IMG/VR virus record: IMGVR_UViG_3300032007_000036
Span: 67,443 to 131,442 of that record
Direction: 5' to 3' (one strand)
DNA from: a virus
Lineage: Duplodnaviria; Caudoviricetes
Length of the DNA stretch: 64,000 nucleotides
A program made the position numbers and the translations under genes. Every line of letters begins with the position of its first letter. Position 1 is the first letter of the stretch. The notes below the pieces were generated by a model. The model saw only the letters and a list, made by a program, of their open reading frames with translations. It made no database searches and was not told where the DNA came from. Of the stretch, positions 1 to 6,114 are shown one piece after another.

Positions 1-207
1 CCTCCCAAGAGACTTTCAGTCGAAGAAGTTCTCAGACTTCCTGACGGACCCGAGAAGAAACAACTCGAGTCTCAGTTCACTGTCGCTGAGAAGATGGAAG
101 CTGCTAAAGTCAGGTACAAGATACAGAGAGAACAGATGCGTGATATGCGCAATAAGGGATTTTCTCTTGATAACCCAATCGTTGGAGTTAATGCTCCGGC
201 GATGTGA
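1..207 (+). CDS. 3' end of a hypothetical protein running in from the window edge
   Basis: Frame 1 is open from base 1 (PPKRLSVEEVLRLPDGPEKK...GVNAPAM) to TGA at 205-207, with phage-like codon usage. Confidence 0.7.
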   Translation, partial: PPKRLSVEEVLRLPDGPEKKQLESQFTVAEKMEAAKVRYKIQREQMRDMRNKGFSLDNPIVGVNAPAM

Positions 208-240
208 GTACAATGTTATAAACTACATCGTAGCACTTGG

Positions 241-510
241 TTATGACCAGTTGGGATTTGGACGGGTCTGTAGCTTGAGTGGTTAGGTCAACGCGTTTAA
301 TCGTAAATTCACGCTAAGTGCGAGAGTCTCACGATTCACGAGAACCGTCATGCTTTCTCAGTCTCTATCTGAGATGGCATCCTGGTCTCGATAGAGCGCA
401 AGCGACTGTCCTGGTAGACTCTCGTGAACATGTTCGTGTGCGCACCTAGTGTGACACATGGCCTTACCAACCACTACATTACAGGCAACCCGTCCTCCTA
501 CTGTTGGTTA
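241..510 (+). ncRNA. Candidate structured non-coding RNA (long rod with central bubble)
   Basis: Nested complementary segments: 260-267/488-495, 268-272/480-484, 278-284/469-475, 285-290/459-464, 309-322/441-454, 335-343/420-428, 356-361/369-374. G-U pairs favour the + strand. No ORF >=60 aa in the track. Confidence 0.65.
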
Positions 511-552
511 CAACTTAAACAAATCTGGTGATAACTTTAGGAGCTGCGAATC

Positions 553-1161
553 ATGTATGACCCTGATATTCATGATCACAACTACCGACCGATAAATGAC
601 TCAGCGATGCAGCAGCAATGCGATATGCCGCAGGTCACGATCTACTCGGACGGAAGTTATAAGCCGCAGATCAACTTTGGTGGTTATGGCACTCTCATGG
701 AGTGCAATGGACACAGAGCTTTACTCTACGGCGGATCTCCATCGGACTCCAACAACAGAATGGAAATTACAGGAGTGTTGGCTGGACTTCGATTGCTGAA
801 CAGACCATGTGTTGTCACTGTTATCTCCGACTCGAGGTACGTTGTTGATGCCATCAACGGCTACATCTGGTCATGGGTGTCGAACGACTGGATGACTTCT
901 CAGAAGAAGCCAGTCGCCAACCGCGACCTTTGGGAAGAGATGCTGCAGTACATACAGATCCACAGGATCCATGGTGTATGGATCAAGGGCCATACTGGTC
1001 ATCCGGAAAATGAACGTTGTGATAGGCTTGCAACAATGGGCGCTTATCACTCGGCCAGTTTGCCGGTACCCGCTAGTAAGCAGTTACTGTACGACCTGTC
1101 GAAAGGAAAGTTTCCAGGTTCTGAGGATGACGACACGATTGAAAGTTACGATCTTCCCTAA
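553..1161 (+). CDS. rnhA: Ribonuclease HI
   Basis: YSDGS, NNRMEITGVL, SDSRYVV and WIKGHTGHPENERCDRLA match the RNase HI catalytic motifs; AGGAG SD at ~539. Confidence 0.95.
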   Translation: MYDPDIHDHNYRPINDSAMQQQCDMPQVTIYSDGSYKPQINFGGYGTLMECNGHRALLYGGSPSDSNNRMEITGVLAGLRLLNRPCVVTVISDSRYVVDAINGYIWSWVSNDWMTSQKKPVANRDLWEEMLQYIQIHRIHGVWIKGHTGHPENERCDRLATMGAYHSASLPVPASKQLLYDLSKGKFPGSEDDDTIESYDLP

Positions 1162-1166
1162 CAGCA

Positions 1167-1206
1167 CTCTAGGCTCCCGGCGGTTCTTACCGTCAGGAGT
1201 CTAGAG
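1167..1206 (+). terminator. Hairpin directly after rnhA
   Basis: CTCTAGGCTCC/GGAGTCTAGAG plus GGCGGT/ACCGTC stems; only a weak U-tract. Confidence 0.5.
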
Positions 1207-1401
1207 CTAACTGTTATCTTGGGTGGGTCTGGGGTACAGTACAGAGTATCTCAAATTTGAGATGACTGAGAGCAGTTCACGCAAGTAATGTGTGATGATT
1301 TTTGGGATTTAGAACTTGATCAAAAAAGAAACACTCTTTGAATTTAGCAAAAAAGAAAGGACCGCGTTAGCGATCCAGTCTCCGTAACCGGATTTCTCCG
1401 G

Positions 1402-1833
1402 TTACTTCTCGACGACCTTGACCAGGTCGTTCTCGAGCAGCTTCCTGATCTGGTCGATGTCAAGAGTGCAGTCGATCCCACAGAAGGTACGGAAGAGCGT
1501 GATCGTCGTCTCGTACTTGTTCGAGAGAGCGTCCACGTTCGTGACCTCCAGGATCTCACCGATGTTCACCGTGTCAGCGCTAGCACGCTTGTCCGGATCG
1601 ACATCACCAGAAGGAAGGTTGAAGTCGCCGATCACCTCGAGCTTGTCACCCTTGTGGGCAACGAAGCAACGAGCGATATCACGCTTCCTGTACGCATCGT
1701 GCTCATCCTTACGAGACTCCTTCTCGGCAATTTCCTTGTCGATAAGAGCACGGAAGTGATGCAGATCATCTGCGATCGACTTCATCGTGTCGTTGAAGGC
1801 AGCGAGGCGGTTTTCGAGTACTGTCAGGTTCAT
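1402..1833 (-). CDS. Hypothetical protein (N-terminal coiled coil)
   Basis: 143 aa ORF, AAGGAG SD, strong phage codon bias. Confidence 0.8.
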   Translation of the reverse strand: MNLTVLENRLAAFNDTMKSIADDLHHFRALIDKEIAEKESRKDEHDAYRKRDIARCFVAHKGDKLEVIGDFNLPSGDVDPDKRASADTVNIGEILEVTNVDALSNKYETTITLFRTFCGIDCTLDIDQIRKLLENDLVKVVEK

Positions 1834-1975
1834 TTCTTATTTCTCCTTGTTTGGTTGTTTGTGGAAAGGGTTGCAGACAGTAAAGCGTTATGTGAGTCGC
1901 TAGCTCACTTGCTCTCCACGGGCTTCCTGCTTCTGCCTGCATGATTGTAATTAGTACATGAAAAAAGAAGAACTA

Positions 1976-2009
1976 CACCAGGTGGAGGGATCAATCCCTC
2001 CACCTGGTG
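1976..2009 (-). terminator. Intrinsic terminator
   Basis: CACCAGGTGGAGGGAT/ATCCCTCCACCTGGTG stem followed on the minus strand by TTCTTTTTT. Confidence 0.8.
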
Positions 2010-2027
2010 AGTATGTTCCAGTCGATC

Positions 2028-3977
2028 TTAACGACGGCTGTTGAGCAGACGACTCATCTCACGATCCTGGATATCGCCAATCTTGAACCAGCGATCAGGT
2101 TCGTTGTGAGTGTTGAGCCAGCTACCCTCGGTGCCACGCTCCATGTCGGTGTGTGCAACCCAAACGCGATAGTACGCACCGTTCTTCATCTTGACGATGG
2201 AGAATGTGTAGTCCTCGAATGCAATCATGCGCTCGATGGTGTCCGTACCGGTCAGCTCGTACTCATCGCCGCCAGCGCACTTCTTTAGCATGTTGACGAC
2301 ATGGAGGATAGACGGATTCGGAGTGCCGAACAGCATGTTCATGTATTCGCTCTGGGTATGCTCTTCCGAGCATTTCTTCGTGTTCGGCTCTTCGCCGATC
2401 GGCTTCATGTTCGTCTGCGGCACAGCGACTTCCGTCTTGATCTCATCGAACCACTCGGTGGGCATGATTCCCTTGTTGTTCACGACCATCTCCTGCGTGA
2501 TCTTGCGGTTGGCCTTGAACTTCTTGCCGGGGGCCTGAGGGAACTCAGCCTCATCACCCTCGTTGTAGATGACGATTTCTTCCATGATGTTTCCTTTCGT
2601 TAGAGATTCCTGGATTGGGCTGTCCTTCTCTTTGACCTCCATCAGGAGATCGAACAGAGTTCCGTTCTTGGTAGCCTCAGCGACCTCGACGTCAGTGAGA
2701 TCCTTGGTGAGGCAGACGAACTCCTTACCAGGATATTCATCAAGAGTGACGAGTTCGCCCTTCTTGATAACGACGACAGGTTCCTTGACCTCAGCCTGAT
2801 GATCAATGTCTGCCACAACAGAGGCAGGCTTCTCAGCATCAGGCTCAGCATCGCTCATCTCGAAGGCTTCTTCCTTGAACGCTTCTGCGATTTCGCTCGC
2901 CGGTGCGTCAAAGGAATCGTTCCAGAGATCGTAGTCGACGATGTAGATCTTCTCAGGATTGACGAAGTTCTTGAACTCGATGTCCGTGAACTCGTGAAGC
3001 ACTGCCGCCTCCTCACCGTCCTTCTCAGGAACCGAGAGAATCCGGACAACGCCTTCATCGCTGATATCGAACTTGACCCTAGTGGACATGAGGAGAACAC
3101 GCTCGTTCTGAACTTCCTTAGCAGCCGGAGTGTCTGGCTTCTGTTTCTCAACAGGATTTTCCTGAGTGGTGTTCTCAGCACGCTGCACACGTTCGAACTT
3201 CTCGAGGAATGTATCGAGCATGCTCTCAGTGGAGCACTCGAACACATCGTCGATAGCGACGTACGTTGCGGCAGAAGCAACCTTGTTCTCAGGATCCTTG
3301 AAAGACCAGACATCGACCTTCTGACCTTCCTCATCTTCCACGAAGATGGTGGCATCACCGTCCTTGGAGATCGTCGTGACGATATCACCCTTGTGGAAGA
3401 CGAGGTTCTTTGGAGGCTCATTCTCTTGCTGCTCCTCGGCAGGAGCGTCTCCAGGCTCAGGCATAGGCGGCTGTTCCTGGTTGATCGGCTTAAGATCTTC
3501 CTCCTTCACAGGTTTCGGAAGATCCTCCTCTATGCACATGTCCTGAATGAGACGAAACACGGGAACGTTCTTACCGTCCTTGAGCTCATTGGCGATCGTG
3601 CCAACAAGACGAGTCCAGCGCTTCAGGTTCTTCTGGTCTGTGACGACGAAGACGAAGTTGATAACCGTTCCTTTGCCTTCAGGGATAGGTTCCCTGATGA
3701 CCTTGAACTGAGCCCATGAGGGATCAGGTCCGATGTCGAACGAGATCACCTCCCCCGTGAACTTGTTGGAGATGACGTTCGACGAGAACTCCTTGAGCTT
3801 GCCCATCAGTGTGGCATGCCGCTGGAGGCTCTTCATAACCTCGCTTGTGTCCACCCGCTCACCCAAACCGAGAATACGACGGAAGACGACGATAGGGCTC
3901 ATCGACTTGACCGTGGACTTGTCCTTGGCGAGTGCGTCCAGGAAGACGCTAGTGAAGGTACTGTTGATGTTATTCAT
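2028..3977 (-). CDS. Acidic multi-domain hypothetical protein, translationally coupled to the DNA polymerase gene
   Basis: 649 aa, E/P-rich linkers; start overlaps the polymerase stop region (3970-3977). Confidence 0.85.
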   Translation of the reverse strand: MNNINSTFTSVFLDALAKDKSTVKSMSPIVVFRRILGLGERVDTSEVMKSLQRHATLMGKLKEFSSNVISNKFTGEVISFDIGPDPSWAQFKVIREPIPEGKGTVINFVFVVTDQKNLKRWTRLVGTIANELKDGKNVPVFRLIQDMCIEEDLPKPVKEEDLKPINQEQPPMPEPGDAPAEEQQENEPPKNLVFHKGDIVTTISKDGDATIFVEDEEGQKVDVWSFKDPENKVASAATYVAIDDVFECSTESMLDTFLEKFERVQRAENTTQENPVEKQKPDTPAAKEVQNERVLLMSTRVKFDISDEGVVRILSVPEKDGEEAAVLHEFTDIEFKNFVNPEKIYIVDYDLWNDSFDAPASEIAEAFKEEAFEMSDAEPDAEKPASVVADIDHQAEVKEPVVVIKKGELVTLDEYPGKEFVCLTKDLTDVEVAEATKNGTLFDLLMEVKEKDSPIQESLTKGNIMEEIVIYNEGDEAEFPQAPGKKFKANRKITQEMVVNNKGIMPTEWFDEIKTEVAVPQTNMKPIGEEPNTKKCSEEHTQSEYMNMLFGTPNPSILHVVNMLKKCAGGDEYELTGTDTIERMIAFEDYTFSIVKMKNGAYYRVWVAHTDMERGTEGSWLNTHNEPDRWFKIGDIQDREMSRLLNSRR

Positions 3978-6114
3978 CTTGTTGTTTCCTTGTTGTGTTT
4001 ACCAAACGTGAGAGGATCCGGTGATCACCGTACACCTCGTTGAAGAGAAGTTTTGCGTTATCGTCATCGACGAACCCACAAGTTACACCGAGTTGCTGAA
4101 GGATTAGCCTAATCGGTCTCGTGTTTTCGTGAACGATGTCACGCACCATTACGAGAGGCATCAGTTCCTTGGGAATGACTGCCACCGTAGGAGCCAGAGC
4201 AATCTTGCTTGGCGGTTTCTTGTTCGCTAGGATAAATCCTTCGAACAGCTTTGCTACTTTAGGACTCGATTTCCTCAGGTCATCGAAATACTCCCTAGTC
4301 GGCTCTGCTATAGGAACAACGACGCACTTGGTAGGGATCTGGATATCGCCATACTTCCATGCAAAGATTTCCTGCCATGCGTAGTAGTAATAGTACGGAC
4401 TAGACATGGGTTTAGCATAACCGTCTTTAGATTTGATCGACTGTGGCTGACACCACGTGATACTGCCCTTAACAACTTCGCTGTAGATCTTGAGTTCCCA
4501 CTCCATTGCTTTCTTGATGAGCTCGTGACCAGAGATCTTCTGGTTGAGCGAACCCAGCAGAATGTCCTGTACAATGAAGTTCTCACCGTACTGAGTTGCT
4601 GCCTTACAGATATCAGAACCCTTGAGCTGAACACCTTTTATGTCGGTGGATGGATTAGGCAGGATAACTCCTTCCTGCACAGTAATAACACCAGCGTAGG
4701 TTTTCTTGATATCTGCGAGACACATGGTCGGATAGAGGAACTCGTTCTTCATCGCCATGTCTTTAACTCGATCTCCCTTAGCTCCGTGGCAGATGCTGTA
4801 CAGCTTGAGAACATGGGCAACAGCCAGAGTTATCCAGTAGATCATGAGACAGGCGATGTGGTAAGTGCCGGGAGAGATCTTGTAGATGTCTCCGGTGTAC
4901 CACTGAACCCAATCCTTGACAGTGAAGATAACCGAGTCTGTGTCGGAAATAACCGAGGAGTTGCGTTGCATGAACTTACGGTTGAGAACATCCGGGACAC
5001 AGAGATCTGTGAAGATGAACGTGTCGAAGATGTCTTCCATTTTCTTCAGCTCACTCTCCACATGTCTGGCGATGTTGACGAACTTGACCGCTTTGTCAGG
5101 CATGTGTTTAGGCAGATCGTACACCTGGATCTCAGGATCTCCAGAACCCACAACGTCGTTGAATGCAACGTTGACCATGGTTACAAGAGCACCGTCGAGT
5201 TTGAACAAGTCATCTGCAACAACTCCATGTTCATCCTTGACAGAGCTCAGATCGAACATAGCCTCTGCCCACGGACGGAAGATGCCGTCGTTGCCCATGA
5301 TGATGTGCCGTAGATTCTGGTAGTACCAGAAGAATTGCACTTCCTCATCGGTCAGATGGCTTACTAGGTCGTCGACCCTTGAAAGTTCCTGTTCTTTATA
5401 CCTGTGATAAATACACAACATGTCCTTGAAGAACTTGGAAAGCTCAGCCTTGCTGACGAATCTCATACCGTGATTCTGCAGACAGTTAAGAACTTTCTCA
5501 GGATCGATGCTACCTTGCAGGTGTATAGTCACATGGTTGATAAGCTGATCCAGAGAGAACCAGCCGAAGTTTCCTCCGAGAACATGCTCGATACAGGTAT
5601 TGGCATAACCGATCAAAGCTCGACCAGCACTGGTGATGCTATTGTAGTTAGCCTTGTCATAGAAGATCGAATAAGAAGAGCCGTAATTCCCAGGCAGGGA
5701 GTTGACGCCGATTTTGATAACAGTCTGCAAGTAGTAGCAGATCAGCTGGTTGACAGTGTCGCCGATTGCTTTGTATTTGAGCATGTCTTTCTTGAACTTC
5801 TTCCTGAGCTTCAGTCGGTTCAAGATCATTTGAATCGTCTTACCAGTCTTCTTATCGTGTTGGCAGTAGAAACTGCCGTTGGGAGACAGGATGTCATCCG
5901 CATGTTTGTCAAGGTAAGTTACTAAGTCAACAGCTTTGAGCTGAGGTAGTCCCTCTGTAAGAGTATCCACCACCACAGCCGTCATCGGGCTGTAGCGGTC
6001 TTTACAGGCCAGACGGAATCGCCGATCTGCCTCCTCTTCAGAGAAACCAAACTTCCGTTGCAAATGGGTGACCATCGTGTCCCTGTACGTTTGTAATATC
6101 CTAGGACGTGACAT
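3970..6114 (-). CDS. Family B DNA polymerase, catalytic subunit of the split phiKZ-type enzyme (phiKZ gp50-like)
   Basis: LSPNG, motif B KIGVNSLPG, ITSAGR, motif C ISDTDS, KKTYAG, IKGVQL; no exonuclease domain or motif A visible. Confidence 0.9.
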   Translation of the reverse strand: MSRPRILQTYRDTMVTHLQRKFGFSEEEADRRFRLACKDRYSPMTAVVVDTLTEGLPQLKAVDLVTYLDKHADDILSPNGSFYCQHDKKTGKTIQMILNRLKLRKKFKKDMLKYKAIGDTVNQLICYYLQTVIKIGVNSLPGNYGSSYSIFYDKANYNSITSAGRALIGYANTCIEHVLGGNFGWFSLDQLINHVTIHLQGSIDPEKVLNCLQNHGMRFVSKAELSKFFKDMLCIYHRYKEQELSRVDDLVSHLTDEEVQFFWYYQNLRHIIMGNDGIFRPWAEAMFDLSSVKDEHGVVADDLFKLDGALVTMVNVAFNDVVGSGDPEIQVYDLPKHMPDKAVKFVNIARHVESELKKMEDIFDTFIFTDLCVPDVLNRKFMQRNSSVISDTDSVIFTVKDWVQWYTGDIYKISPGTYHIACLMIYWITLAVAHVLKLYSICHGAKGDRVKDMAMKNEFLYPTMCLADIKKTYAGVITVQEGVILPNPSTDIKGVQLKGSDICKAATQYGENFIVQDILLGSLNQKISGHELIKKAMEWELKIYSEVVKGSITWCQPQSIKSKDGYAKPMSSPYYYYYAWQEIFAWKYGDIQIPTKCVVVPIAEPTREYFDDLRKSSPKVAKLFEGFILANKKPPSKIALAPTVAVIPKELMPLVMVRDIVHENTRPIRLILQQLGVTCGFVDDDNAKLLFNEVYGDHRILSRLVNTTRKQQDE

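Follow-up and report, generated by a model that had tools for sequence, protein, structure and literature searches.

A new covariation-supported RNA family, most likely a cis-regulatory leader of the RNase HI gene, in uncultivated gut and rumen phages

In the leader of the maturation (A-protein) gene of phage MS2, an upstream complementary sequence pairs over a long distance with the Shine-Dalgarno (SD) sequence. The ribosome-binding sites (RBSs) of the phage T4 genes e (lysozyme), soc and I-TevI are occluded on early transcripts, and the occlusion is relieved by late promoters located inside the hairpin. 6S RNA has a length of 150-200 nt and is processed, in E. coli, from the ssrS-ygfA transcript. 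Structured RNAs of more than 300 nt that show strong covariation and have no assigned family are rare. Very little is known of how uncultivated phiKZ-like jumbo phages regulate their genes at the RNA level, and we know of no dedicated regulatory leader of an RNase HI gene described before. Literature searches for a phage 6S RNA or a jumbo-phage riboswitch-like leader found nothing relevant. 5′ UTR sRNAs of giant phages include sRNA005 of 201phi2-1 and the phiKZ gp182 leader (PMC11512511). The element described here resembles them, since it too is structured, conserved and located in the 5′ UTR of a conserved gene of phiKZ-like phages, but those RNAs are shorter than 250 nt, end at a premature terminator and lie upstream of a tail gene, and they are unrelated in sequence and context. 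Our element is a new covariation-supported RNA family, best explained as a cis-regulatory leader of the RNase HI gene (rnhA) and not as a 6S mimic.

The window, i.e., the whole stretch of DNA that was analyzed (64,000 nt), is the second half of a 131-kb IMG/VR record with a CheckV completeness of 49%. Near its start, a gap (208-552) separates a 270-aa gene, which ends at 207, from rnhA, the product of which matches phage RNase H genes by tblastn (coordinates are collected in Table 1). A family-B DNA polymerase is encoded near rnhA on the minus strand (3970-6114). Because it is ~25% identical to the enzymes of phiKZ-like jumbo phages (Xanthomonas, Vibrio, Erwinia, Bacillus), the source phage is, to judge from this gene, a distant phiKZ-like jumbo phage. 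No RNA polymerase (RNAP) domains of Pfam were detected in the 131-kb fragment, which does not show that RNAPs are absent, since such enzymes are very divergent and half of the genome is missing.

An earlier note, made from the letters of this DNA, had seen in the gap a rod-shaped RNA of ~270 nt (241-510) and had suggested a 6S-like decoy of the host RNAP or a new class of noncoding RNA. The better-than-chance folding of the plus strand is real (-107.3 kcal/mol and a z score of -5.67 for 241-510, with none of 200 dinucleotide shuffles as good), but the extent had been drawn too short. The unit covers 227-552, the 5′ strand at 228-250 pairing with 525-549, which includes the SD of rnhA, and over the full unit (227-555) the plus strand reaches -128.7 kcal/mol (z = -6.55). 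The helices listed in the note are in place (GGACGGGT at 260-267 with ACCCGTCC at 488-495, CTGTAG at 268 with TTACAG at 479, AGTGGTT at 278 with AACCACT at 469, AGGTCA at 285 with TGGCCT at 459, 309-322 with 441-454 and 335-343 with 420-428), and so is the TATG at 242-245. The gap had also been described as having no long ORF; none is conserved there, because indels of 3 and 5 nt occur among the homologues. An inverted repeat of this kind could also work as DNA, be it a cruciform or a site of recombination or protein binding, or it could be there by chance with no function as RNA. The minus strand does beat the shuffles too (-96.6 kcal/mol and z = -4.78 for 241-510, -109.2 kcal/mol and z = -4.62 for 227-555), as any inverted repeat must. 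However, the plus strand is ~20 kcal/mol more stable over 227-555, and G-U pairs, constant or in alternation with G-C, are numerous and would be A-C mismatches on the minus strand. The conserved G-U pairs and the GC-to-GU changes are tolerated on the plus strand only; the earlier note had taken the G-U pairs as an argument for selection on this strand at the RNA level. Besides, a DNA palindrome would need neither the asymmetric conserved loops nor the side hairpin, and the pairing partner is the SD of an mRNA. Given the strand asymmetry, an explanation at the DNA level is extremely unlikely, and the fold is a real, conserved RNA of ~325 nt on the plus strand.

Searches with two flanking proteins in rumen and gut metagenomes recovered relatives of the locus (contigs within L002-L015), and pattern scans added L024 from IMG/VR and L029 from the metagenome set. 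In all, the element was found in 12 further metagenome contigs, giving 13 loci and six sequence lineages: the window group (7 distinct sequences), L029, L012, L014/L024, L013 and L015. At all 13 loci it lies directly upstream of the RNase HI gene of the clade, with a conserved gap length, in the 5′ UTR position of the same strand and with neither a terminator-like site nor an ORF between. The RNase HI proteins of the clade have 193-213 aa, and most of the more distant matches ~145-180 aa. The 131-kb genome fragment holds a single copy of the element. Among GenBank phages, blastn and megablast of the region gave no match, and neither a scan with a single protein nor a long exact pattern had any match in IMG/VR. 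Looser patterns returned only L024 in IMG/VR and, in the metagenome set, L029 as a true match together with five chance matches, while a 15-mer of the conserved block described below had 106 matches in IMG/VR, essentially all by chance. In the 185,579 species genomes of GTDB, all 10 pattern matches were due to chance, their number being as expected, and nhmmer found nothing. To judge from these searches, the element is so far confined to a single clade of phiKZ-like jumbo phages, which are uncultivated and come from gut and rumen.

The alignment of the window group (A1, RNAalifold) has 102 pairs, with standard pairs in 98% of the cells. Eleven pairs changed on both sides, versus 4.2 ± 1.3 in shuffles (none of 500 reached 11) and 0-3 in slid controls, in which the partners were shifted by 1-3 columns. 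With L029 added (core 252-498), there are 80 pairs, 94.5% paired, and 23 of them carry double changes, compared with 6.6 ± 1.9 in shuffles (0/500) and 0-6 in slid controls, which amounts to strong covariation. In the comparison with L004, the leader is 78-80% conserved and the third codon positions of rnhA 66-69%. A covariance model of the 249-position core (R1) aligns the window group and L029 at 160-282 bits; it finds local marginal matches only on L012, L014 and L024 (E = 0.003-0.39) and nothing credible on L013 and L015. When 11 sequences were aligned from anchors with MAFFT, the quality sufficed for RNAalifold at P2 and the side hairpin only. Because R1 is weak or fails there, what is said of L012-L015 and L024 across lineages comes from individual folds and duplex tests and not from a single global alignment.

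In the structure models, 227-552 folds as one closed, elongated multi-helix structure of ~100 bp that carries a single small side hairpin and a number of invariant internal loops. The P2-P5 arms pair in every lineage (-22 to -38 kcal/mol), P2 becoming GAACGAGUA/UACUCGUUC in L012 and GGACGGAUGA/UCAUCCGUC in L013. In P1c, one pair shows a G-C to A-U double change in L004 (alignment pair 73/324), and AUUUG is invariant in five of the six lineages, differing only in L015, the most divergent. The 5′ strand of P1b has an alternative, a local hairpin UGGU-UAUG-ACCA, and L012, L013, L014, L024 and L029 are likewise predicted to have a local hairpin there. Two details of the first description had to be given up. 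The region 291-308, taken for an AT-rich unpaired central bubble, holds a conserved hairpin of 3-5 bp at 293-304 (longer and with another stem sequence in L004, UGCG/CGCA, and in L012, L014 and L024, GCAUG-UUAGAU-CAUGC), and, since the opposite strand has only 4-6 free nt, what had been drawn as a bubble is a junction with a small hairpin. L008 cannot form the apical TCTCAG/CTGAGA hairpin; instead, a double change from G-C to U-A (pair 121/139) preserves in it another pairing, GAGAU/GUCUC plus UCUAUC/GAUAGA, for which L029 has several further compensations; this pairing leaves the invariant UCUCA as an unpaired loop. The apical domain ends with a variable 3′ loop (403-419). Unpaired motifs invariant in most or all lineages are the AUUU bulge, the CUUGA loop, the UUUAAU hairpin loop and UCUCA, and only L013 and L015 deviate from UUUCUCAGUC, which does not vary elsewhere. 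A covarying structured domain is thus found together with invariant unpaired nucleotides (AUUUG, UUUCUCAGUC and the hairpin loop), as in an SD-sequestering leader. In addition, 322-329 can pair with 414-421, crossing P8/P9, and a pairing of other sequence exists at the same position in L008/L009 and is weak elsewhere; the pairing may be fortuitous, or else a switch helix or a pseudoknot.

Table 1. Features of the rnhA leader and its surroundings (positions in the window), with the pairing of the 5′ end and the SD region by lineage
Feature	Position	Strand	Remarks
Conserved block TGTTATAAACTAC	214-226	+	Includes TGnTATAAA (214-222), putative extended -10-like promoter element
P1a 5′ strand, upstream complementary (anti-SD) sequence	228-237	+	Pairs with 539-549
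P1b 5′ strand GGUUAU.ACCAG, including conserved UAUG 242-245	239-250	+	Pairs with 525-536
P1c 5′ strand UGGGA and invariant AUUU bulge	252-259	+	252-256 pairs with 496-500 in the minimum free energy (MFE) fold
P2-P5 5′ strands GGACGGGU, CUGUAG, AGUGGUU, AGGUCA and conserved loop CUUGA	260-290	+	Fold, covariation
Small conserved hairpin GCG-UUUAAU-CGU	293-304	+	G-U and G-C variants
P6-P9 5′ strands	309-343	+	Carry most compensatory changes (13 pairs with double changes)
Apical domain: ACAGUC/GACUGU, GCUU/AAGC, unpaired UCUCA, long hairpin UCUAUC.GAGAU/GUCUC.GAUAGA	344-419	+	
3′ strands of P9 to P2	420-495	+	Fold, covariation
Variable linker: P1c 3′ strand UCCUA and lineage-specific small hairpins	496-524	+	Longer insertions in L012, L014 and L024
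3′ strands of P1b and P1a, SD UAGGAG 538-543	525-552	+	Ends at the base before AUG
rnhA, RNase HI, 202 aa	553-1161	+	Pfam PF00075, E = 2.6e-35, residues 27-164
GC-rich hairpin, 11 bp, CTCTAGGCTCC...GGAGTCTAGAG	1167-1206	.	Directly 3′ of the rnhA stop codon, between convergent genes
5′/SD pairing, window lineage			UCGUAGC..UUGG with UAGGAGCUGCGA
5′/SD pairing, L012			UCAUC, CUCUGUU with AACGGAG, GAUGA
5′/SD pairing, L014			GUACUUCA with UGGAGUAC
5′/SD pairing, L013			UCCCUAAGUC with GACUUAGGGA
5′/SD pairing, L029			CCUAUUGC with GCAAUAGG

In every lineage, the 15-18 nt that follow the conserved block are complementary to the SD/AUG region of rnhA, with a different sequence each time (Table 1). 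The cognate duplexes have energies of -15.8 to -19.4 kcal/mol in five lineages (window, L012, L014, L013 and L029), versus an average of -8.1 ± 2.1 kcal/mol for noncognate combinations, and a single one of the 720 partner permutations was as good, namely, the true assignment. L015 has a weak duplex (-9.4 kcal/mol), and its fold shows the helix only if the first 12 coding nucleotides are included. Individual MFE folds close with the helix between the 5′ end and the SD in seven of the eight lineages folded; in the window lineage, three of the five SD bases are paired and no more. A helix that contains the SD/AUG therefore has the support of covariation and, being made of the downstream RBS with changes specific to each lineage, it points to cis-regulation of rnhA. 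We consider it probable, with some reserve, that 227-552 is a cis-acting 5′ leader that controls the translation of the rnhA mRNA. The nearest parallel in design is the MS2 A-protein leader, where the extreme 5′ sequence also pairs with the SD of the first gene across a folded domain, and translation is limited to RNA in which the helix is unformed or opened. However, MS2 has an RNA genome and a leader of ~130 nt, while here we have the mRNA of a DNA phage, a conserved core of 290 nt and invariant loops; control is kinetic in MS2, and the likeness is one of structure alone, with no sequence relation.

The same helix bears on the 6S-like decoy. Our element shares with 6S RNA (RF00013 and related families) a long, mostly double-stranded form with interruptions and the position upstream of a protein gene with no terminator between (ssrS-ygfA in E. 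coli). On the other hand, cmscan gave no match to a 6S model or to the models of large phage noncoding RNAs (E ≤ 10 for positions 1-3000 of the window, E ≤ 1 for six homologous loci), there is no open, two-sided bubble, the folded unit has ~325 nt versus the 150-200 nt of 6S, and the closing helix contains the SD and covaries with it. The decoy thus fails every 6S feature that could be examined here. At these same thresholds, nothing in Rfam 15, which includes SRP, RNase P, introns, HEARO, GOLLD and ROOL, was found in the element or its six homologues, and ARAGORN detected no tRNA or tmRNA genes in the window, in agreement with the note, in which the element was not recognized as a tmRNA, an RNase P RNA or an intron. 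Of the two suggestions made at the outset, the new class of noncoding RNA is the one that stands, the element being conserved, covarying, strand specific and without a match to any Rfam family. Still, a stand-alone RNA might be cut from the rnhA transcript and act in trans, as a decoy of the 6S kind, a protein-sequestering RNA or a guide RNA, its overlap with the SD being incidental. Such a large, very stable, rod-like RNA with invariant loops is more than SD occlusion needs, the upstream block resembles a host-type extended -10 element in a genome where TATAAT-like hexamers are otherwise rare, and sRNAs derived from 5′ UTRs have been reported in giant phages (PMC11512511). However, no Rfam family scores, 6S included; where a central bubble should be two-sided, the 5′ side is the conserved hairpin; the element has no terminator of its own; it occurs only before rnhA, once per genome fragment; and its terminal helix is the SD/AUG region and covaries with it in every lineage. 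An origin and action of this sort is decidedly unlikely, and we return to the cis-acting leader.

The block upstream of the structure, ATGTTATAA(A/T)C..AC, is invariant or nearly so in all six lineages and unique in the 131-kb fragment, and the covarying helix P1a begins 1-4 nt after it. It may be an extended -10-like element, TGnTATAAA/T, with a predicted transcript start at ~227-231. The gene next upstream in L014/L024 points the other way, at a distance of just ~75 nt, and the pairing strand must therefore have a promoter of its own at the block, which favors a start at ~227-231. The two strands of the 131 kb together have 9 copies of TATAAT and 23 of TATAAA, versus a rough expectation from base composition of ~80 each, and sigma-70-like -10 hexamers look strongly depleted in the fragment; TGnTATAA[AT] occurs three times, one of them at the leader. 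The block was also considered as a recurrent promoter class of the phage, and this was ruled out: it is unique, and its near-matches lie in coding sequence made of common codons. In five of the six lineages, (T/C)ATG follows the block at a distance of 15-16 nt, with the spacer sequence changed completely; TATG is kept in four of the six, L029 having CATG and L015 no motif. A leader peptide starting at the conserved AUG (242-244) was rejected, the ORF having 3-17 codons with frames that differ and changes that are nonsynonymous or nonsense.

In phiKZ, late promoters have the form T(-3)ATG(+1), and middle promoters carry AAanTTACc centered near -24 (PMC4666361; PMC7598289). A second, shorter transcript can be imagined in this light: a phage RNAP would start at G245, with the block as a -24-type element, and free the SD, while long transcripts would be closed, as in T4 e, soc and I-TevI. 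Like these T4 genes, rnhA has an upstream strand that sequesters the SD and a candidate internal start (TATG) between that strand and the rest of the leader. The AAACTAC of the block is centered at -22 from G245, the DNA polymerase puts the phage among the distant phiKZ-like phages, and read-through is expected in the window lineage, because only 6 nt and no terminator separate the end of the upstream gene from the block. The fixed spacing of (T/C)AUG fits a phiKZ-type start as well and counts against the leader model, since the anti-SD strand would be left out of the RNA. However, all four TATG bases are required in phiKZ (PMC4666361), and the motif is the one just described as altered in L029 and missing in L015, so that TATG is a putative start in four of the six lineages. 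The combination of block and TATG is found nowhere else in the 131 kb and is, for this reason, not a promoter class of the phage. L014/L024 have no co-oriented upstream gene to provide read-through, yet their anti-SD strand covaries. Finally, the T4 hairpins are short and a simple hairpin would suffice here too, which leaves the large conserved core of 290 nt unexplained. We judge such alternative starts unlikely.

The leader model that we prefer would work as follows. The transcript would begin just after the TGnTATAAA block, and its first 15-25 nt would pair across ~290 nt with the SD region of rnhA and, in some lineages, also with the AUG. With the 5′ end paired to the SD/AUG, the RBS would be occluded in the folded state, and this closed state, as the default, would keep the synthesis of RNase HI low or gated. 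The conserved core (AUUU bulge, CUUGA loop, UUUAAU hairpin and UCUCA loop) might be recognized by a factor that opens or locks the terminal helix, and candidates for it would be a small ligand, a nuclease that processes the RNA, or a protein, perhaps RNase HI itself. There is also a version free of any effector, a purely kinetic throttle like that of MS2. Because the core, with ~80 covarying pairs and invariant motifs, far exceeds an occluding hairpin, we favor a factor-responsive translational operator, and autoregulation by RNase HI may be one candidate. Riboswitches and protein-binding leaders (ribosomal-protein leaders, M-box) are alike in having a covarying, sensor-like 5′ UTR domain coupled to an SD helix, in a single gene family. 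In contrast, our element has no Rfam match, is an extended rod and not a compact multi-way junction, and comes from one phage clade only. It should be noted that typical riboswitch aptamers are far smaller and less rod-like than this core and that a stability of -129 kcal/mol raises the question of how the RBS ever opens; both count against the leader model. In its most far-reaching form, the leader would be a new class of large RNA sensor that couples RNase HI synthesis to the replication state of the phage (load of RNA:DNA hybrids or R-loops, a nucleotide or metal ligand, or RNase HI, detected through the invariant loops), or it would also be processed into a stable, trans-acting rod RNA that plays its own part in infection; this we hold to be doubtful. 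In any case, the leader offers a well-defined, testable case, in which a single gene goes with a single promoter-like element and a single long-range helix that includes the RBS. If an effector exists, it would be a new class of sensor RNA, and if there is none, the DNA-phage counterpart of the long-distance translational throttle of the MS2 type. The attractive idea of a phage 6S mimic is corrected as unsupported.

The gene downstream also brings to mind a role in replication similar to that of ColE1 RNA II, in which the RNA would hybridize to the template DNA as a pre-primer and be cut by the adjacent RNase HI, or in which an R-loop would report a shortage of RNase H and free the SD. The adjacency to RNase HI, the sole functional link, and the replication neighborhood with its family-B DNA polymerase speak for it, as do, in L012 and L015, the long noncoding stretches immediately before the leader, which contain palindromes and (CG)n runs. 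Nevertheless, GC skew, a weak indicator in phages, shows no inflection at this locus along the 131 kb, RNA II does not resemble a closed rod that ends 3′ within the SD of a gene that is translated, and a conserved G-rich/C-rich pair that could anchor the hybrid was not identified. The idea is purely inferential, and we find it very improbable beside the cis-acting leader. As regards the upstream regions of these two contigs (L012:2030-2600 and L015:2400-2700), there are 700-970 nt with no called gene, and they share a 22-nt near-palindrome (AACTTAATTAGATTAAGTATAC / GTATACTTAAGATAATTAAGTT) and alternating (CG)n/CACG runs. From their sequence, they may be an origin or another cis-acting DNA region.

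Several minor observations were made on the protein and its neighbors. The RNase HI of the clade (553-1161 in the window, homologues P0012-P0032) has ~26 extra residues at the N terminus and an acidic C-terminal tail of ~40 residues (…SEDDDTIESYDLP). These extensions are absent from the typical RNase HI of ~150 aa and co-occur with the leader. The hairpin at 1167-1206, which drew weak chance matches to miRNAs in Rfam, is probably a bidirectional terminator marking the end of the transcription unit. In one lineage only, an HNH_3 endonuclease gene is inserted downstream of rnhA (L014:1550-2215), and in the L004/L005 lineage there is an extra ORF of 111 aa, with no Pfam family, between a 283-aa gene and the leader (L004:3849-4184); here too, the preceding gene stops only 5-6 nt before the conserved block begins. 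The divergent intergenic region before the 270-aa gene, just outside the window on its upstream side (L001:336-655, equivalent to G000:66518-66837), holds a hairpin of 15-17 bp (GTTCACTCATCCCC...GGGGATGAGTGAAC) followed by ~130 nt that are very AT rich. The homologue of the 270-aa gene in L011 (1585-2397; 93% identical protein) matches the database protein only if TAG is read as Gln, which may reflect either recoding of the stop codon in this phage lineage or one isolated TAG variant in frame.
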